From an uncultured SAR86 cluster bacterium (GTDB taxonomy: Bacteria; Pseudomonadota; Gammaproteobacteria; Magnimaribacterales; AG-339-G14): a stretch of DNA of 64,000 nucleotides. Where the stretch lies: positions 8,349 to 72,348 of the forward strand of contig CACEOL010000004.1 in assembly GCA_902561325.1 (NCBI GenBank). Reading direction: 5' to 3'. The notes beneath the pieces were generated by a model. It was not told the origin of the DNA, did no database searches, and was given only the letters and a program-made list of their open reading frames with translations. The translations under genes were made by a program, and so were the position numbers. Shown in pieces: positions 7,978-27,828 of this stretch. Numbering within the stretch: the stretch's first letter is position 1; every line of letters starts with the position of its first letter.

Positions 7978-8711
7978 TGGCGGGACATTCTAAGTGGGCT
8001 AACATAAAGCATCGCAAAGGTCGTCAAGATGAAAAAAGACAAAAAGTCTTTTCGAAGCTGATTAGAGAGCTAACCGTTGCTGCAAAATTAGGAGGACCTG
8101 AGCCAGGAGATAATCCTAGATTAAGACTGGCTCTGGATAAGGCTCTTGGGGCCAATATGCCTAAAGATACTATAGAAAGAGCTATAGCAAGAGGCTCTGG
8201 AGATCAGGAAGCAGAAAATTTAGAAGAAACAGTTTATGAAGGCTATGGTCCCAATGGGGTTGCCATTATAGTTGAAACTCTTACGGACAATAAAAACAGA
8301 ACAGTTGCTGAAGTTAGACATGCTTTTTCTAAATATGGAGGAAGTTTAGGTACCGATGGGTCTGTAGCATATCTATTTACCAAAGTTGGCCAAATAGTTG
8401 TTGAAAATACTGACGAAGAAAAAATATTTGATGTCTCTGTATCAAATGGCGCAGATGAAGTAGAACAGGGTGACGAAGAGAATCTCATCATTTCTGTTGA
8501 AGCCGAAGAATTTCATAATCTAAAAAATGTTCTTGAAGAGAATGGAATCAAAATCAACCAATACGAGTTAATTATGAAAGCATCAAATAGCGTAGAGCTT
8601 GATGATGAAGCTTCTGAAAAAGTCATCAATCTTCTTGAAAGTCTTGAAGATTTGGATGATGTACAAAATGTTCATTCCAATGCTGAGTTTTCTGAAGGGA
8701 GCTTTGCTTGA
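7977..8711 (+). CDS. yebC: YebC/PmpR-family protein
   Basis: MAGHSKWANIKHRK, YEGYGP, TDNKNRT, LEDLDDVQNVHSN. Confidence 0.96.
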   Translation: MAGHSKWANIKHRKGRQDEKRQKVFSKLIRELTVAAKLGGPEPGDNPRLRLALDKALGANMPKDTIERAIARGSGDQEAENLEETVYEGYGPNGVAIIVETLTDNKNRTVAEVRHAFSKYGGSLGTDGSVAYLFTKVGQIVVENTDEEKIFDVSVSNGADEVEQGDEENLIISVEAEEFHNLKNVLEENGIKINQYELIMKASNSVELDDEASEKVINLLESLEDLDDVQNVHSNAEFSEGSFA

Positions 8712-19457: not shown

Positions 19458-20171
19458 ATGGAAAAAAAAGAACTTCTCACTAAAGGAAAAGCCAAAGAGC
19501 TTTACAAGACATCAGATGATTCAAAACTCGTAATGGACTTCACTGATGATACTTCGGCATTTGACGGAAAAAAAATAGAACAACTAGCTGGAAAGGGAAC
19601 AGTGAATAATAGATTCAATAACTTTATTATGAATCACTTGGATTCTAAAGGTGTGGCTTGTCATCTTTTGGAAGAACTTAATGATCGTGAAAGTTTAGTT
19701 TTATCTTTAGACATGTTTCCGATTGAATGTGTTGTAAGAAACTATGCTGCTGGAAGTATTTGTAAGCGACTTGGTTTAGAGGAAGGGATGAAATTCGAAA
19801 ATCCTATATTTGAATTCTTTTATAAGGATGATGACTTAGGAGATCCGATGATAAATGATAATCATATAATTTCTTTTGGATGGGCAGAATCAGATGACAT
19901 AGATATTCTTAAAAAACTAACTTTAGAAATTAATGACCATTTAGTAGACTTATTTCTTAAAGCAGATTTAATTCTAGTTGACTTCAAACTAGAGTTTGGA
20001 AAACACTCTGGAAAAATATACCTTGGCGATGAGTTTACTCCAGATGGATGCAGAGTTTGGGACAAGGAAACCAAAAAGAAACTAGATAAAGATAGATTTA
20101 GATTAGGTCTTGGAGATGTGGTTGAATCTTACCAAGAGATAGCTCATAGACTTGGCGTAAATTTAACTTAA
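19458..20171 (+). CDS. purC: SAICAR synthase
   Basis: GKAK, ECVVRNYAAGS, FFYKDD.LGDP, LVDFKLEFG, DEFTPDGCR.WD, LDKDRFR. Confidence 0.97.
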   Translation: MEKKELLTKGKAKELYKTSDDSKLVMDFTDDTSAFDGKKIEQLAGKGTVNNRFNNFIMNHLDSKGVACHLLEELNDRESLVLSLDMFPIECVVRNYAAGSICKRLGLEEGMKFENPIFEFFYKDDDLGDPMINDNHIISFGWAESDDIDILKKLTLEINDHLVDLFLKADLILVDFKLEFGKHSGKIYLGDEFTPDGCRVWDKETKKKLDKDRFRLGLGDVVESYQEIAHRLGVNLT

Positions 20172-21215
20172 GCTTTTATTAATTTCTTCCAAAATCTCAC
20201 TTCCTGGACAAAGTTCGTCTTGTTCTAAAGTATTTAAAGGTTTATCAGGTAAATCCATTATTTCAGTCAGAGACTTACATTTATTATCTACGTAAAGAAG
20301 TCCAGTAATAATTTTTCCTTCTTTATTTTTTTCCCTAATTAGATCCAAAGAATTTCCTGCATCTGTAGGATCAAAATTATTATCGGTTTTTTCTAGAGAT
20401 AGTCTAGACCCATCATGAAGTTTAACTTCTACACTTGAGCCTTCATCATAATTTGTCTTTATTTCTTCTCCTAATGGGACAAAGTCTGTTTTACCCATTG
20501 CTTCGTTATGATTTCGAATGTAGTCATAACTTTTTGTTGAAGAATCATGATTGTTGAAAGTTACGCAAGGACTAATAATATCCAAGAGCGCAAAACCTTT
20601 ATGTTGTATAGCTCCCATAATTAAAGGTACTAACTGATCTCTATCCCCAGAAAAACTTCGAGCTACATATGATGCTCCCATCTGTATTGCCATAGAAGTT
20701 AGATCTATCGGAGGAAATAAATTATCTTCTCCATACTTATTTTTGGATTCAAGATCGTTTGTTGCGGAAAATTGTCCTTTAGTTAAACCATAAGTTCCAT
20801 TATTTTCAACAAAATAAACCATATTAACTTGCCTTCTAATTGCATGGATAAATTGCCCAATACCAATTGAGGCACTATCTCCATCTCCCGATACCCCTAA
20901 GTAAAGAAGATCTTCATTGGCACAGTTTGCACCTGTGGCTATTGAAGGCATTCTTCCATGGACAGAATTAAATCCATGAGAAGCATTTAAAAAATATGCT
21001 GGAGCTTTTGAAGAACAACCAATACCAGATAATTTAGCTACTTTATAAGCTTCGATATTCAGCCTAAAACAAGCTTCAATGATACAAGCACTTATAGAAT
21101 CATGACCACATCCAGCACATAGAGTAGAAACGCCTCCTTCATAGTCTCTTCTTGTAAGACCTAATTTATTTTTTTCTAAGTTAGGATGTTTATTTATTGG
21201 TTTAAAGTAACTCAT
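20163..21215 (-). CDS. 2-oxoacid:ferredoxin oxidoreductase beta subunit (KorB-like)
   Basis: LCAGCGH, SGIGCSS, HGR, TPP motif GDGD...ENN.TYGLTKGQ, SPCVTFN. Confidence 0.93.
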   Translation of the reverse strand: MSYFKPINKHPNLEKNKLGLTRRDYEGGVSTLCAGCGHDSISACIIEACFRLNIEAYKVAKLSGIGCSSKAPAYFLNASHGFNSVHGRMPSIATGANCANEDLLYLGVSGDGDSASIGIGQFIHAIRRQVNMVYFVENNGTYGLTKGQFSATNDLESKNKYGEDNLFPPIDLTSMAIQMGASYVARSFSGDRDQLVPLIMGAIQHKGFALLDIISPCVTFNNHDSSTKSYDYIRNHNEAMGKTDFVPLGEEIKTNYDEGSSVEVKLHDGSRLSLEKTDNNFDPTDAGNSLDLIREKNKEGKIITGLLYVDNKCKSLTEIMDLPDKPLNTLEQDELCPGSEILEEINKSLS

Positions 21216-23044
21216 GTCATTAAGGCCTGTTGTGATTCTCTTTCGTAAATTTTCTTAGCAATAAATTTTGCTTGAATTGGATCACCATTAAACCAAACTA
21301 GTGATCTAAGCTTTTCTGCTGAAATTCCTCCTTCAGCCATTATTAAAGTTCTCATTTGGCTATCTCTATTTTGTTCAATTACATATATAAGGTCATGGTT
21401 TTCAATGAATTCCCATACATCTAAGTTGAAAGGAAAAGATCTAATTCTCATTAAATCTACTTCAATATTATTTTCGTTAAGAATGTCTTTAGCTTCATAC
21501 ATTGCAGCAGATGTACTACCGTAAAAAATTACCCCAGAGCTTCCTTGTTTTTCAGAAAGATTAATTATTGGGTCGGGAACTAATTCAGATGCAGTTCTAA
21601 ATTTTTTTACTAGCCTTGTTAAAGTTTGCTCATTGATATCTCCATTTTCTGTATACCTAGCATATTCATCATGAGATGTTCCTCTCGTAAAGAAAGCTCC
21701 CTTCTCTGGATGAGTTCCTGGATAAGTTCTATAACAAATACCATCATCATCGACATCTAAATATCTACCAAAATTATCCATATTATCTAAATCTTCAGCT
21801 TTAAGAACTTTTCCTCTGTCGTATTTTTGATTATCATCCCATTCAAATTTATCTGTAACCCAATCATTCATTCCAATATCTAAATCGCTAATTACAAATA
21901 CAGGAGTTTGTAATCTTTCAGCTAAATTGAAAGCTTCTGCAGAAAATTCAAAACATTCCTGAGGGTCTTCAGGAAATAAAAGTACATGTTTGGTATCTCC
22001 ATGAGAAGCATAAGCACAAGAGAGAATATCTGATTGTTGGGTTCTTGTCGGCATTCCGGTTGAAGGCCCACCTCTTTGAATATTAAAAATAACTAGAGGC
22101 ACTTCTGCAAAGTAAGCAAGACCTAAAAATTCACTCATTAATGAAATTCCTGGACCGCTTGTTGCAGTAAAACCTCTTGCGCCATTCCAATTTGCACCTA
22201 TCGCCATACCAATAGCAGCTAATTCATCTTCAGCTTGAACACTTATGTAATTATTTTTTTCTGTCTGTGAGTCAATCCTGTACTTTGAGGCATACTTTTC
22301 AAAGCCTTCTGCAACAGAGGTAGATGGCGTTATTGGATACCAAGAGCAAAATGTAGCTCCCCCATATACTGCTCCTAAACCACAAGCATCATTTCCTGAA
22401 ACAAGTATTTTATTTTTAAGCTTATCTTCTCTTTTGACATTAATTCCTAGCGGATAAGGTAAATTTTTTAAGACGTAGTCTCTTCCGATATTTAAAGCTT
22501 TTATATTTGGCTCAATAAGAGCAGGCTTGCTTACAAATTGTTCCGAAATTAATTTCTCAAGCACCTCATATTCGATTTCTAAAAGAGGCGATAATGCTCC
22601 TACATAAGCAATATTTTTAAATAAAGCCCTTTGTTTAGCATTTGTGAAGGAATCCACACAAAGTTGTGTTAATGGAATTTCAATAATTGTGATGTCATCC
22701 CTATTAAAATTTCTTTTCCAAGTTGAATCATATAAAAGGTAACCGCCTTCTGAAATCTCCTCAATATCTTGAGAATAAGTTTGGGGATTCATTGCAACAG
22801 CAATATCTACACCACCTCTACTTCCTAAATATCCTTTATTATTAACTCTGACTTCAAACCAAGTTGGTAAACCTTGGATATTTGAAGGAAAAATATTTTT
22901 TGGACTTATGGGTATTCCCATCCTAAAAATAGACTTTGCAAACATTTGGTTTGCACTTGCAGAACCTGTTCCATTAACATTTGCAAATTTAATGACAAAG
23001 TCATTAAGCGAATTAATAGGATCTACTTTTACAGGATTTTCCAT
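21212..23044 (-). CDS. 2-oxoacid:acceptor oxidoreductase alpha subunit (gamma-alpha fusion, KorA-like)
   Basis: NVNGTGSASAN, YPITPS, QAEDE, TATSGPG, QRGGPSTGMPT. Confidence 0.93.
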   Translation of the reverse strand: MENPVKVDPINSLNDFVIKFANVNGTGSASANQMFAKSIFRMGIPISPKNIFPSNIQGLPTWFEVRVNNKGYLGSRGGVDIAVAMNPQTYSQDIEEISEGGYLLYDSTWKRNFNRDDITIIEIPLTQLCVDSFTNAKQRALFKNIAYVGALSPLLEIEYEVLEKLISEQFVSKPALIEPNIKALNIGRDYVLKNLPYPLGINVKREDKLKNKILVSGNDACGLGAVYGGATFCSWYPITPSTSVAEGFEKYASKYRIDSQTEKNNYISVQAEDELAAIGMAIGANWNGARGFTATSGPGISLMSEFLGLAYFAEVPLVIFNIQRGGPSTGMPTRTQQSDILSCAYASHGDTKHVLLFPEDPQECFEFSAEAFNLAERLQTPVFVISDLDIGMNDWVTDKFEWDDNQKYDRGKVLKAEDLDNMDNFGRYLDVDDDGICYRTYPGTHPEKGAFFTRGTSHDEYARYTENGDINEQTLTRLVKKFRTASELVPDPIINLSEKQGSSGVIFYGSTSAAMYEAKDILNENNIEVDLMRIRSFPFNLDVWEFIENHDLIYVIEQNRDSQMRTLIMAEGGISAEKLRSLVWFNGDPIQAKFIAKKIYERESQQALMT

Positions 23045-25074
23045 TAGGCGACTTCCTTAGCTTTAGCCTTATCTTTATTTAAGTTATGCGCCTCGATGTA
23101 ATTATTTTGTTGAATATCCCAAGCACCAGTCGGACACCTTTCAGCACAGAGTCCACAATGAACACACATATCTTCATCTTTAATCATGACTCTTCCAGTA
23201 GCTAGTTTTCCTGATACATAAAGGTCTTGATCCAAATTCAAAGCCGGCACTCTAAGTTTTTCTCTAACCTTTTCTTCAGTATCATTTGTAGTGAATGTAA
23301 TGCAATCTGTCGGACAAATATCAACACAAGCATCACACTCTATACAAAGCTTTTCTTGAAAAACTGTCTGCATATCACAATTCAGACATCTCTGTGCTTC
23401 ATCAAGTGCGAGTTTCTCATCAAAGCCTAATTCGACTTCCATTTTAAGATCATTTAGAGCTTCTTTTAAATCTGCATGAGGGACTTCCAGACGAGCTTCT
23501 TGAGAAATACCGTTATCATAGGACCATTCATGAATTCCCATTTTTTGACTTACTAAATTTGTAAGTGGTGGAGGCCTATCGAATAAATCAACTTCGCTAC
23601 AAAAATTATCTATGGAAATTGCAGCTTGATGGCCGTGTGCTACAGCCCATATGATATTTTCAGGACCCCAAGCAGCGTCACCACCAAAAAAGACTTTTGG
23701 ATGAGAAGACTGCATTGTAGTTTTATCAACAATAGGGCAGTCCCATTCATTAAAATCAATTCCGATATTTTTTTCTATCCATGGAAAAGCATTGTCTTGA
23801 CCAATTGCCAGAAGCACGTCGTCGCACTCAATAATTATTTCTTCACCCGTAGGAATCAACTTTCTTTTACCATCGGTATATTGAGCTTCCATTTTTTCAA
23901 ATTTCATTCCCTTAAGCTTGCCTTCATCATCCAATAAAAACTCTTTTGGAGAAGTGTTATCTAAAATAGGAATTCCCTCATCAATTGCTTCTTCCAACTC
24001 CCAATCAGATGCCTTCATGTCTGACTTTGGACTTCTAACAGTTACTTTAACGTCATCTGCTCCTAATCTAATGGCTGTTCTACAGCAATCCATAGCTGTA
24101 TTTCCTCCTCCAATAACAATAACTTTCTTACCTATTGATTTGGTATGCTCGAAAGCAATACTTGTTAACCAATCGATTCCAATATGAATATTTTCACTAG
24201 CTTCTTTTCTACCAGGTATTTCAAGATCCTTACCTTTAGGCGCCCCTGTGCCAACAAATACAGCATCAAAAGAATCGATAACATTTTCTAGGCTATCAAT
24301 GTAGGAATTAGTTTTCAGTTCAGCTCCCATTTTGATTATTCTGTAAACCTCTTCATCTAAAACTTCCGCAGGAAGCCTAAAAGATGGAATATTGGTTCTC
24401 ATTAATCCACCGGGTTTATTATCTTTCTCAAAAATAGTAACTTCATAACCTAGTGGCAGTAAGTCTCTGGCTACTGTTAAGGATGCAGGACCTGCACCAA
24501 TCAGGCCTATTTTCTTACCATTTTTAACTTTCGGAATCTCAGGGAGATAAGGATCAATATCATTCTTGTAATCATAAGTGACTCTTTTTAGTCTACAGAT
24601 AGCTACTGGCTTATCATGAGTTCTTCCTCTTCTACATGCAGGTTCACATGGTCTATCACAGGTCCTTCCAAGTATCCCTGGAAATACGTTTGATTCCCAG
24701 TTAAGCATATATGCATCATCATATTTTTTTTGAGCTATCAAACGAATGTATTCAGGGACATTGGTATGAGCAGGACATGCATATTGGCAATCAACTACTT
24801 TATGAAAATATTGTGGATCAGAAATATCAGTTTTTTGCATGTGCTCAGTTCCTCTAAGCACAATGCCTTTATCATCTGCATTGACTTTCCTGATTTGGAA
24901 TTCAGTTTTAAACTCTTCAATTATTTTATCTCTGATGGGTATTGCTTTTTCTAAATCCTTTTCGCCAGTTGTTCTTCTTAAATCATAGCCTAATTCACTT
25001 CTTAAAGACAAAGGTACAGCAAGTTTTACCCACCATACATTGTTTCTTTTAAACAAATATTTTTTATCAGACAT
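23044..25074 (-). CDS. GltD-like FAD/NAD(P)/Fe-S oxidoreductase with C-terminal ferredoxin domain and N-terminal DUF6538-like domain
   Basis: CQYACPAH, CDRPCEPACRR, GAGPA, GGGNTAMDC, two CxxCxxCxxxCP motifs; extra 78-aa N-terminus YLFKRNNVWWVKLAVP..LR..LG..LRRTTG.KDL..A. Confidence 0.9.
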   Translation of the reverse strand: MSDKKYLFKRNNVWWVKLAVPLSLRSELGYDLRRTTGEKDLEKAIPIRDKIIEEFKTEFQIRKVNADDKGIVLRGTEHMQKTDISDPQYFHKVVDCQYACPAHTNVPEYIRLIAQKKYDDAYMLNWESNVFPGILGRTCDRPCEPACRRGRTHDKPVAICRLKRVTYDYKNDIDPYLPEIPKVKNGKKIGLIGAGPASLTVARDLLPLGYEVTIFEKDNKPGGLMRTNIPSFRLPAEVLDEEVYRIIKMGAELKTNSYIDSLENVIDSFDAVFVGTGAPKGKDLEIPGRKEASENIHIGIDWLTSIAFEHTKSIGKKVIVIGGGNTAMDCCRTAIRLGADDVKVTVRSPKSDMKASDWELEEAIDEGIPILDNTSPKEFLLDDEGKLKGMKFEKMEAQYTDGKRKLIPTGEEIIIECDDVLLAIGQDNAFPWIEKNIGIDFNEWDCPIVDKTTMQSSHPKVFFGGDAAWGPENIIWAVAHGHQAAISIDNFCSEVDLFDRPPPLTNLVSQKMGIHEWSYDNGISQEARLEVPHADLKEALNDLKMEVELGFDEKLALDEAQRCLNCDMQTVFQEKLCIECDACVDICPTDCITFTTNDTEEKVREKLRVPALNLDQDLYVSGKLATGRVMIKDEDMCVHCGLCAERCPTGAWDIQQNNYIEAHNLNKDKAKAKEVA

Positions 25075-25199
25075 TTAAAGTGTACCTTATGTTCATCTCA
25101 CGGCATTTATTTTAAAGAGATTATAGTATTTTTATTTAAAAGGTACAATACACAGTAATATGGTTATGAATTGTTTGTTTTTGATTAAATGTACCTTTT
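25011..25199. repeat. four copies of the TGTACCTT/AAGGTACA motif, including a 10-bp inverted repeat
   Basis: AAGGTACA 25011-25018; TGTACCTT 25081-25088; AAAAGGTACA 25138-25147; TGTACCTTTT 25190-25199. Confidence 0.7.
25120..25148 (-). promoter_or_regulatory. sigma70 promoter of the kor operon
   Basis: Minus strand TTGTAC (25148-25143), 17-nt spacer, TATAAT (25125-25120). Confidence 0.65.
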
Positions 25200-25215
25200 T
25201 AGATTATTGTTTTCG

Positions 25216-25224
25216 TGGTACTAT
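25216..25224 (+). promoter_or_regulatory. extended -10 promoter of the isc operon
   Basis: TGgTACTAT, 20 nt upstream of ATG 25245. Confidence 0.45.
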
Positions 25225-25244
25225 TCACGCGAAATTTAGATGAA

Positions 25245-26450
25245 ATGAATACTTATTATTTTGATTACGCTTCTACAACTCCAGTTGATTCCTTGGTGGT
25301 TGATAAGATGAAGGATTGTTTGTCAGTCGATGGAGCTTTTGGTAATTCAGGATCGAGATCACATGTTTATGGCTGGAAGGCTGAAGAATTGGTTGAGGAA
25401 GCAAGAGTAAATGTTGCCAACTTAATCAACTGTGACTCCAGGGAAATAATTTGGACTTCTGGAGCTACTGAATCAGATAACCTGGCAATTAAAGGCGCAG
25501 CATATTTCTATTCAAATAAAGGCAAACACATTATCACTTCTAAAATTGAACACAAAGCTGTTTTAGATGTATGCAGACAACTTGAAAGCGAATCTTATGA
25601 AGTTACATATTTGGAGCCCAATAAGGATGGTGTAATTACTCCAGAGTCTGTTGAAGCAGCTCTAAGAAAAGATACTGTTTTAGTTTCTTTAATGCATATT
25701 AACAATGAAATAGGCGTTATAAATGATATTGATTCTATAGGAAAAATTGTAAAACAAAATGGAAGTATCTTTCACGTTGATGCAGCACAAAGCGCTGGCA
25801 AGATTCCAATTGACATTCAGAATTTAGAGGTAGATTTAATGTCATTTTCTGCTCATAAAATTTATGGCCCTAAAGGAATCGGAGCATTATATATAAGAAG
25901 AAAGCCTAGGGTACGTCTTCAACCTTTATTCCATGGCGGAGGTCAAGAAAGAGGTATAAGGGCAGGTACACTTCCAACACACCAGATAGTGGGAATGGGC
26001 GAAGCTTTTAAGCTTGCTAAGGAAAAAATGTCAGAAGATTTTAAAAACCTATCTAAATACAGAGATATTCTTTGGAATGGATTGAAAGATATGGAAGAGG
26101 TTTATATAAACGGAGCAATAGATAATACGTTTCCAGGAATCTTTAACATGTCATTTAATTTTGTTGAAGGTGAGTCTTTGATAATGGCTTTAAAAAATAT
26201 TGCTGTTTCATCTGGTTCTGCTTGCACTTCTGCCAGTCTTGAGCCTTCTTATGTTCTAAGGGCTTTAGGAAGAAAAGATGAACTTGCTCACAGCTCTATA
26301 AGATTTTCTTTCGGAAGGTTTACAAAGGAACAAGAAGTTAAAGAAACAGTAGAGCTTGTAAAAGATTCTGTTAACAAACTTAGAGAAATCTCGCCGTTAT
26401 GGGAAATGTACCAAGATGGCGTAGATTTAGATAAAATAGAGTGGGCATAA
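25245..26450 (+). CDS. iscS: cysteine desulfurase IscS (ATG 25245 preferred over GTG 25215)
   Basis: [50 protein letters not shown]. Confidence 0.97.
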
Positions 26451-26477
26451 ATTGATAATTTTAATTGCGAGGAACTA

Positions 26478-26900
26478 ATGGCTTATTCACAGAAAGTGGT
26501 AGATAAATTTGAACAAACTCTAAAAAATCCTAAAGAAGCAAGTGTAGGTAGATGGAAACCTGGAGACAAAGATTTTCACAGAGTAGGCACAGGAATTGTT
26601 GGCGCTCCTGCGTGTGGAGATGTCATGAAGCTTCAAATTAAATGTGAAAACATAGACGGCACTAATAAGATTGTTGATGCTAAGTTCAAGACTTATGGCT
26701 GTGGTTCAGCAATTGCTTCAAGCGGAGAGCTTATTGATATGCTCAAAGGCAAAACTTTAGAAGAGGCTCAAAATATATCAAATCAAGAAATCGTAGATAT
26801 TCTTGAGTTGCCAGCTATAAAAATTCACTGTAGCGTCCTTGCTGAAGAAGCTATCCATAGGGCGATAGATGATTTCAAAAGCAGAAGAAATAATGACTAA
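26478..26900 (+). CDS. iscU: Fe-S scaffold IscU
   Basis: GAPACGDVMKLQI, FKTYGCGSAIASS, KIHCSVLAE. Confidence 0.96.
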   Translation: MAYSQKVVDKFEQTLKNPKEASVGRWKPGDKDFHRVGTGIVGAPACGDVMKLQIKCENIDGTNKIVDAKFKTYGCGSAIASSGELIDMLKGKTLEEAQNISNQEIVDILELPAIKIHCSVLAEEAIHRAIDDFKSRRNND

Positions 26901-27628
26901 TGCCAAAAATAAAAGTATTGCCTCATGCTGAAATATGTCCTGATGGTGCAGAATTTGAAGCAGAATCTGGAATTTCTGTTTGTGAAAATCTTCTTAATCA
27001 AGATATAGATATAGAACATGCTTGTGAACTCTCATGCGCTTGTACTACATGTCATGTCATTTTCACAGAAGGTTTTAATTCCTTGAATGATTCTTCAGAT
27101 GATGAGGAAGATTTATTGGATAAAGCGTGGGGCTTAGAGTCAAGATCAAGATTAAGTTGTCAGACATTAGTAGAAGATGCAGATTTGGAAATACAAATTC
27201 CTAAATACACAATAAATATGGTTTCAGAAAATCACCCTAAACCCGCTACGAACTCAACAAAAGAAATTTCTTCAAAAGATTTTGATATTTCTAATACTGC
27301 AGCTACACATTTAACTGAAATGATTAAAGCAAATAATTCTTTTGGGGTCCGCATATCTTTAAAAGACTCAGGGTGCTCAGGCTTTGCGTATCAACTTGAC
27401 TTAATCGATGACAAAGATGAAAACGATTTTGCCGGCCTAGTAAATGGAGTAAATTTATTTATTCATGATAAAAGTTTTGTTTTCCTTAAAGGTACTAAAC
27501 TTGACTTCGTCAAAAAAAACTTAAATCAAGAACTGGTTTTTTTGAATCCAAATGTTTCAGCTGAATGTGGTTGCGGTGAAAGTTTTAATTTCGACACCGA
27601 GCTTGTAAAAGACCTATCCAACAACTAA
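26900..27628 (+). CDS. fusion of ISC [2Fe-2S] ferredoxin (N-terminal) and IscA/HesB carrier (C-terminal)
   Basis: EHACELSCACTTCH...DKAWGLE..SRLSCQ, then SGCSGFAY...F.NPN...CGCGESF, in one frame. Confidence 0.92.
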   Translation: MPKIKVLPHAEICPDGAEFEAESGISVCENLLNQDIDIEHACELSCACTTCHVIFTEGFNSLNDSSDDEEDLLDKAWGLESRSRLSCQTLVEDADLEIQIPKYTINMVSENHPKPATNSTKEISSKDFDISNTAATHLTEMIKANNSFGVRISLKDSGCSGFAYQLDLIDDKDENDFAGLVNGVNLFIHDKSFVFLKGTKLDFVKKNLNQELVFLNPNVSAECGCGESFNFDTELVKDLSNN

Positions 27629-27633
27629 TTACA

Positions 27634-27828
27634 ATGGATTGGTCAGATACTTATGACATCGTAGACAGCCTCTGTGAAAAATATCCTAATGAAAAGCCTG
27701 AAAAGTTGCTTTTTTTAGATCTTATGAATATGGTTACGTCTCTTGAAGGATTTAAAGGAAAGAAAGAGAACTGTAACGAAAGAATTTTAGAAGCTATTCA
27801 GGCTACCTGGATAGAGGAGAAGGATTAA
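27634..27828 (+). CDS. iscX: Fe-S assembly protein IscX
   Basis: W.D..DI...L...YP...P....F.DL...NERILEAIQ..W. Confidence 0.9.
   Translation: MDWSDTYDIVDSLCEKYPNEKPEKLLFLDLMNMVTSLEGFKGKKENCNERILEAIQATWIEEKD

Follow-up and report, generated by a model that had tools for sequence, protein, structure and literature searches.

GGTACA boxes at the divergent kor/isc control region of a SAR86 bacterium as candidate operators of an integrase-type domain fused to an iron-sulfur flavoprotein

What reads a short DNA motif that recurs between two divergent iron-sulfur operons in a bacterium of the SAR86 cluster? The motif lies in a stretch of 64,000 nucleotides (hereafter the window), which covers positions 8,349 to 72,348 of contig CACEOL010000004.1 in assembly GCA_902561325.1 from an uncultured SAR86 cluster bacterium (G000:C4:8349-72348 in our own numbering), and whose genome, G000, comprises 1,174,349 bases at 34% G+C and is 86.7% complete. 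Within the window, the kor operon, encoding a 2-oxoglutarate oxidoreductase, and the isc operon diverge from a control region of 173 bp, and the first kor gene encodes a fusion protein in which an N-terminal domain (hereafter the head) precedes a GltD-like flavoprotein subunit of the oxidoreductase. A preliminary description of this DNA had proposed that the motif copies are operators for the fused domain. The comparative evidence presented here, namely conservation of the boxes, their co-occurrence with the domain and control loci without it, supports that proposal, and we put at roughly 70% the probability that the boxes are operators of the fused head and that the fusion protein is a PutA-like trigger enzyme controlling the divergent kor and isc promoters.

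An exact search of the window placed TGTACCTT at 25011-25018 (minus strand), 25081-25088 (plus), 25140-25147 (minus) and 25190-25197 (plus), with further copies at 592, 30433 and 62698 only, and thereby bore out both the four positions and strands and the roughly three scattered copies that had been found by eye. These seven copies compare with 1.21 expected and with a maximum of four in 100 shuffles, none of which reached seven. The last two copies at the locus extend, as had been described, to an exact 10-bp inverted repeat, AAAAGGTACA (25138-25147) and TGTACCTTTT (25190-25199), on either side of a 42-base gap. Taking the 6-mer GGTACA/TGTACC as the core and AAGGTACA as the 8-mer consensus of the boxes, we counted 23 8-mers and 212 cores across all 1,174,349 bases of G000, and the exact count against genome background, proposed earlier as a check, singled out the kor/isc locus as the sole site in the genome with at least three cores per 200 bp. 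Poisson expectations for the whole genome were 0.0016 for a four-core cluster and 2e-7 for a cluster of four 8-mers, and the whole-genome core scan found no second cluster that might indicate a wider regulon in G000. Nearly all genomic cores (205 of 212) lie inside long open frames, where they are made by Val-Pro and Gly-Thr codons; three of the seven outside such frames belong to the kor/isc locus, and the other four lack the AA flank.

Conservation among close relatives separates the three intergenic copies, which we call boxes 2, 3 and 4 (Table 1), from the copy inside the fusion gene. Across nine species of the window's genus, aligned for footprinting and separated by a synonymous divergence of about 0.47 in the fusion gene, all 24 columns of the three boxes are invariant, compared with 88 of 149 other intergenic columns (41% vary). 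The N-terminal domain itself is under strong purifying selection, with a ratio of nonsynonymous to synonymous substitution rates (dN/dS) of 0.043. The intragenic copy needs no further explanation, because it consists of the codons for Ala-Val-Pro in an invariant motif of the protein; these read GCT GTA CCT in 16 of 30 loci, and the valine is GTT in 13 of 30. This copy is probably codon-driven, and it may also serve as an operator. The idea of four operator copies is thus supported for the three conserved intergenic boxes and gives way to a probable coding explanation for the copy at 25011.

Beyond the genus, the boxes follow the head. With the first 100 residues of the fusion protein as query, we searched 61 related genomes, comprising the window's own family (f1), a second family bearing the domain (f2) and two sister families without it (f3 and f4). 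The domain was detected in 41 of the 61: G000 and 33 of the 36 other f1 genomes, 7 of 8 in f2, 0 of 8 in f3 and 0 of 8 in f4. Loss of the domain from the remaining f1 and f2 genomes (G002, G008, G032 and G043) was considered and rejected, because full-length IscS was not found in the same four genomes either, and we treat them as assembly gaps. A AAGGTACA core stands upstream of every one of the 66 loci examined in which the domain begins the first gene, through three fusion partners and in genomes that range from 34% to 67% G+C. At the 28 Kor-fusion loci, all of which share the GltD-like Kor subunit as partner with the window, three to six cores occur in the 320 bp upstream with AAGGTACA as their consensus (three each at nine loci of the window's genus, three to five at 15 loci of three other genera, three to six at four loci of f2), and the flanks, spacing and orientation of the boxes vary among genera. 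Across the two families, the fusion is retained, with identity declining in step with kinship.

The second partner is IscS. Ten f1 genomes carry the head on an IscS of 474-481 residues (about 72% identical), and these are exactly the f1 genomes that possess the domain and no KorA match; the head has thus been retained where kor is lost. Here, all ten loci have an inverted pair, TGTACCtt and GGTACA separated by 18-22 bases, that ends 8-14 nt 5' of the ATG, and the upstream neighbour gene is a different one from that of the Kor-fusion loci. The third partner is KorA (701-725 residues) in metagenome-assembled genomes of Woeseiaceae with 53-67% G+C, where aaaaGGTACAg is found no more than 60 nt upstream of the ATG in 28 of 28 fusions, most loci have a second box about 200 nt farther upstream, and core density is 5.0 per kb upstream of the fusion, compared with 0.34 per kb over the remainder of the loci. 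A fourth partner is known from a single metagenome protein, P0063 (358 residues), in which the head precedes a PyrK/NfnA-like part (NAD_binding_1 and DHODB_Fe-S_bind). The sense-oriented proximal box of the window recurs in other f1 genera as well as at all 28 Woeseiaceae loci. Across the other genera, the distance between box and start codon runs from 6 to about 250 nt; boxes occur in both orientations and stand apart from -10 and -35 elements.

Loci without the domain served as controls. The iscR-iscS loci of f3 were fetched for seven genomes and read in five; in these five, the interval that separates iscS from the gene before it is free of cores (the three cores found lie in open reading frames). 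In f4, the 300 bp preceding iscS are free of cores at all five loci examined. Footprinting in genomes with and without the fusion, which had been suggested earlier as a further check, therefore found boxes upstream of the fusion gene at 66 of 66 domain loci and at the isc promoters of 0 of 10 control loci, which is, as far as comparative genomics reaches, the behaviour of a cognate operator. The boxes co-occur strictly with the domain through three fusion partners.

If the boxes belong to the head, what kind of protein domain is it? Fourteen heads share 15 invariant columns, with Y6, R10, W14, W15, K17 and R33 among the invariant residues, and a profile built from them matched 361 proteins (E <= 0.001), with short fragments frequent among the top matches; the seven tested matches of 424-523 residues all proved to be DUF6538 followed by Phage_integrase. 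Close relatives P0008, P0030 and P0034-41 carry PF20172 (DUF6538) above its cut-off in precomputed domain lists, and P0063 scores 43.8 bits against the same family. Judged by these sequence comparisons, the head is homologous to DUF6538, the N-terminal domain of tyrosine integrases. An AlphaFold2 model of the domain (mean predicted local distance difference test score 79.6, linker disordered) predicts a three-stranded sheet plus a long helix, in the order strand, strand, short helix, strand, long helix (E7-10, E13-19, (H22-28), E31-35, H41-68). We found no recombinase part, core-binding or catalytic, in the fusion protein, the remainder of which is Fer4_20, Pyr_redox_2 and Fer4, and thus regard the head as domesticated and not as part of an integrase; the only match to the domain in G000 is without a recombinase part. 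In a tree of 59 heads, built on few columns, integrase heads stand apart on long branches, Woeseiaceae heads form one group (99/98), and IscS-fused heads are nested within the f1 Kor-fused group (99/95). Unlike the long-branched integrase heads, those fused to enzymes form tight, slowly evolving groups.

We propose the following mechanism. The head, of about 65 residues and derived from an arm-type DNA-binding domain of tyrosine integrases, would dock on the AAGGTACA boxes; a variable linker would tether it to the iron-sulfur flavoprotein subunit of 2-oxoglutarate oxidoreductase; and the enzyme, presumably oligomeric, would place several heads on the boxes of the 173-bp control region. Arm-type domains such as that of lambda Int bind short sites of variable number, spacing and orientation. 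With box 3 occupied, a head would lie over the -35 element and spacer of the putative kor promoter; with box 2 occupied, it would lie in the kor leader; and with box 4 occupied, it would cover the -35 zone of the presumed promoter of iscS. The enzyme may regulate its own kor operon, most likely by repression, which is suggested because boxes stand at the -35 element and spacer and in the leader, and it may also regulate the isc operon, for which activation and repression are alike possible. The signal would be, at a guess, the state of the enzyme's cluster, its redox state or substrate engagement, as with PutA. DNA binding by the head, repression of kor and any signal are inferred. Enzyme and N-terminal head reside in one polypeptide, as in trigger enzymes such as PutA, BirA and NadR. 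The locus appears best explained by a PutA-like trigger enzyme that acts on one locus, in a family where an IscR gene was not found.

This last point rests on a search for Rrf2/IscR (PF02082), which found no such gene in G000 (86.7% complete) or in the 36 other f1 genomes, 37 in total, while its positive control matched in 14 of 14 named genomes. By family, the Rrf2 gene was found in 0 of 36 genomes of f1, 7 of 8 of f2, 7 of 8 of f3 and 0 of 8 of f4, so that head and IscR coexist in f2, the head stands alone in f1, and f4 has neither. At f2 loci, the Rrf2 gene diverges from the fusion gene, with the boxes in between. Two known regulators were rejected as binders of the boxes: IscR, as its gene was not found in f1, and Fur, as Fur-like boxes lie beside and not within the GGTACA boxes of two f2 loci. 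At these two loci (L028 and L025), an AT-rich palindromic stretch between the Rrf2 and fusion genes adjoins back-to-back GGTACATGTACC boxes, and this stretch resembles a Fur box.

Several observations weigh against our proposal that the head binds the boxes. The window's own domain matches PF20172 at E 1.7e-4 and 21.6 bits, below the family cut-off of 27. Foldseek with the domain model gave nothing at E <= 0.001, and when the profile was run against PDB sequences, its three matches were at chance level. Structural alignment with VIA-align placed lambda Int (1z1b, Z 4.1), the arm domain of the HPI integrase (3jtz, Z 4.1, root mean square deviation 2.5 over 50 residues, 24% identity) and 2wcc (Z 3.8) amid many unrelated rows of equal Z, as it did the AP2 domain 6sy0 (Z 3.7), so that the structural match to solved arm-type domains is at noise level; because of this, we rested the identity of the domain on sequence homology and not on fold. 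For DUF6538 as a family, it is the position of the domain in integrases that suggests DNA binding. The positions of the kor and iscS promoters are by-eye readings, and a consensus promoter scanner listed neither of them, because their -35 hexamers match at 3 of 6 positions only. Four marine metatranscriptome runs contain parts of the stretch, with exact RNA contigs over 24692-24854 and 24825-25000 that include the domain-coding part, the second continuing from the domain into the enzyme part; none of the contigs crosses 25110-25245, and they give neither transcript ends nor strand. Finally, because boxes and an IscR gene coexist in f2, the proposed system does not require that IscR has been replaced.

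Some of these points feed alternative explanations. The strongest alternative is that a separate transcription factor binds the GGTACA boxes, the head being a relic or having another function such as protein-protein contact. A separate factor that travels with the operons would yield the same comparative pattern, which counts against our proposal in turn, and the noise-level structural link between the head and solved DNA-binding arm domains leaves room for one. Such a factor, however, would need exactly the phyletic pattern of the head, given that the boxes accompany the head through three partners, in two different genomic settings of one family and in a distantly related high-GC family, and are absent where the head is absent. 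Strong purifying selection on the head, and its being kept after the loss of kor, also argue against this alternative. On balance, we consider a separate binder unlikely, though it retains appreciable weight.

A role in RNA has markedly poorer prospects. Here, the proximal sense box would work at the level of the mRNA leader instead of DNA, either by forming an RNA element or by providing ribosome-binding context, and the arrangement is suggestive enough to weigh against a DNA operator: the proximal box is sense-oriented at nearly all loci, a sense box occurs in the presumed leader at f1 Kor-fusion loci, at IscS-fusion loci and at 28 of 28 Woeseiaceae loci, and box 2 of the window overlaps a plausible Shine-Dalgarno sequence (AAGG). 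The distance from proximal box to ATG nevertheless ranges from 6 to about 60 nt, the other boxes are antisense or upstream of the -10 element (for instance boxes 3 and 4 in the window and, in Woeseiaceae, the second boxes some 200 nt upstream), and the family of the head is one of DNA recombinases. We therefore regard an RNA function as very improbable.

The preliminary description had itself named a full explanation by -35, Shine-Dalgarno and codon constraints as a finding that would undo the operator proposal, along with a lack of motif conservation in relatives that have the fusion, which the 66 of 66 loci contradict. In an AT-rich genome such repeats might indeed be functionless by-products: the copy at 25011 equals the codons A-V-P, a -35 element takes its TTG from box 3, the AAGG ahead of the ATG comes from box 2, and 205 of 212 genomic cores sit in open reading frames. 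The core cluster is unique in the genome, however, the core is kept in other genera where the boxes are displaced from promoter elements and the ribosome-binding site, and the 24 invariant box columns compare with 59% of the others, so that these constraints do not account for the boxes and the by-product explanation, already contradicted by the comparative data, keeps only a slight chance of being right. Least credible of all is that the boxes are arm sites for site-specific recombination and mark the att region, relic or active, of a mobile element. In its favour, the family of the head is that of integrase N-termini and the adjacency of purC and iscS in f4 makes the kor operon look inserted in the window; against it, the sole head match in G000 is without a recombinase part, the fusion is kept over two families with identity falling with kinship, and the boxes stand at promoters in all lineages.

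The proposal that the head acts on the boxes has close counterparts among known systems. PutA uses multiple short operators in the putA/putP spacer. PutA of Escherichia coli and Salmonella is described as a trigger enzyme, a proline dehydrogenase/P5C dehydrogenase with an N-terminal DNA-binding domain, which acts as a single-target regulator on the spacer that separates putA from the divergent putP unit (PMC8249747). The fusion protein resembles PutA in being a redox enzyme with an N-terminal head (here a putative DNA binder), a single target and a divergent spacer. It differs in three respects: (i) the head of PutA is a ribbon-helix-helix, whereas that of the fusion protein is predicted to be an integrase-type sheet-plus-helix; (ii) the partners here are iron-sulfur enzymes, namely Kor subunits and IscS; and (iii) PutA switches by membrane association and flavin reduction, whereas the fusion protein is not known to have a switch of this kind. 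With the arm domains of integrases (lambda Int, Tn916 Int and HPI Int, the nearest family being DUF6538), the head shares sequence homology to DUF6538 heads, a predicted sheet and helix, and several short candidate sites of variable orientation and spacing; unlike integrases, it is without a core-binding or catalytic domain, is attached to metabolic enzymes and has its candidate sites at promoters.

IscR, of the Rrf2 family and the usual regulator of isc operons, controls the isc promoter, a position in the circuit that we propose for the fusion head as well; the two belong to unrelated protein families. IscR sites are long and palindromic; the boxes described here, in contrast, are short single sites. 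A sheet-plus-helix fold common to integrase and endonuclease heads also serves as a transcription factor in the AP2/ERF and ApiAP2 proteins of plants and apicomplexans. These differ from the fusion head in being eukaryotic and stand-alone, and their fold match to the head (6sy0) is at noise level. A literature search, with supplementary files outside its scope, found no published account of the domain and box system, no mention of DUF6538 and, among the papers listed, no link between SAR86, IscR and cysteine desulfurase. Fusions of enzyme and regulator whose operators lie in a divergent spacer are known as a kind; new here are the predicted fold of the head, its origin in a mobile element, its partners and the apparent take-over from IscR.

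More tentatively, we raise a wider evolutionary possibility, one that we would not expect to hold in all its parts: that the head was domesticated once and was later passed around among iron-sulfur and redox operons, each time joining the first gene (for KorA, IscS, the GltD-like Kor subunit or the PyrK/NfnA-like protein), that it regulates without a sensor of its own, the attached enzyme acting as the sensor, its cluster, redox or substrate-engagement state setting the occupancy of AAGGTACA, and that in one streamlined marine family this arrangement took over the control of iron-sulfur homeostasis from IscR. Should the operator proposal be true, a new DNA-binding fold of mobile-element origin would join the short list of bacterial trigger enzymes, with one fold re-attached to different enzymes of a single functional theme, and the control of iron-sulfur cluster synthesis without IscR in abundant, genome-streamlined marine bacteria would be explained. 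With a single locus, an 8-bp box and a head of only some 65 residues, the system would also be very compact and testable for the passage from enzyme state to transcription, and could inform what DUF6538 heads recognise in real integrases.

Table 1. Features of the kor/isc locus, in coordinates of the window
Feature	Position	Strand	Remarks
korB	20163-21215	-	Follows korA in the same operon; korA and korB together span 20163..23044
korA	21212-23044	-	Downstream in the operon of the fusion gene; domain matches of korA/korB are POR, POR_N, TPP_enzyme_C
Fusion gene, 676 residues	23044..25074	-	N-terminal domain + Fer4_20 + Pyr_redox_2 (GltD-like flavoprotein) + 4Fe-4S dicluster; frame stays open in 28 loci
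N-terminal DUF6538-like domain, residues 1-66	24877..25074	-	A linker of variable sequence continues to about residue 90
Intragenic motif copy	25011..25018	-	Codons Ala19-Val20-Pro21-Leu22 of the N-terminal domain
Box 2, AAGGTACA on the kor sense strand	25081..25088	-	6 nt 5' of the kor start codon, in the leader and ribosome-binding zone; invariant in 9 congeners
Putative kor promoter, TTGTAC-17 bases-TATAAT	25120..25148	-	Read by eye
Box 3, TGTACCTTTT on the minus strand	25138..25147	-	Overlaps the TTGTAC -35 and spacer of the putative kor promoter; invariant in 9 congeners
Box 4, TGTACCTTTT	25190..25199	+	Covers the -35 zone of the presumed promoter of iscS; invariant in 9 congeners
Putative iscS extended -10, TGgTACTAT	25216..25224	+	Read by eye
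isc operon	25248..27828	+	iscS (ATG at 25248), iscU, Fer2-IscA fusion, iscX; no iscR; divergent from kor

The sequence elements that had been pointed out in the control region are present as described. One copy overlaps the -35 element of the putative kor promoter, which reads TTGTAC at 25148-25143 and TATAAT at 25125-20 on the minus strand; another covers the ribosome-binding region of kor, where it overlaps the plausible AAGG 10 nt before the ATG; and box 4 lies over the -35 zone that belongs to the putative extended -10 of iscS. The -10 block of kor, ATTATAGTATT, shows no variation among the nine congeners, and the TG and T-A---T positions of the iscS element are retained in all nine. One promoter-like and one terminator-like row reported by the scanner fall inside the coding region and were taken as chance.

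Apart from the boxes, the neighbourhood of the fusion gene has features of its own. An in-frame methionine at residue 79 (24838-24840) lies just ahead of Fer4_20, and other genera have no methionine there; in the window's genus, a head-less enzyme could arise from this internal start. On the isc side, a 242-residue protein (26900-27628, plus strand) joins a 2Fe-2S ferredoxin (Fer2) to an IscA-type domain (Fe-S_biosyn), the hscBA genes are absent between its gene and iscX, and ndk follows downstream of iscX on the plus strand. On the kor side, comparison of the region 19458-25247 with the sister family f4 showed that purC, which in the window lies at 19458-20171, directly precedes iscS in f4 with a gap of about 60 bp, whereas in the window the three-gene kor operon intervenes on the opposite strand. 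Because f4 has purC next to iscS, the kor operon seems to reflect insertion or differential loss.

Two other close pairs of the 8-mer occur elsewhere in the genome. In codons 10-18 of trpE (G000:C1:158809-158832, L085 2010-2033), AAAGGTACA and TGTACCTTT form a perfect inverted pair 8 bases apart. Within the window's genus, 12 of 17 genomes retain the pair, against 0 of the 44 searched outside it, a pattern for which coding constraint between closely related genomes can account. An M19 membrane dipeptidase gene (G000:C17:814-865, L086) contains, midway along its length, a convergent 11-bp inverted pair, TGTACCTTTTT and AAAAAGGTACA, 44 bp apart and made by Val-Pro-Phe and Lys-Gly-Thr codons. Two such close 8-mer pairs per genome exceed chance, and both are coding.

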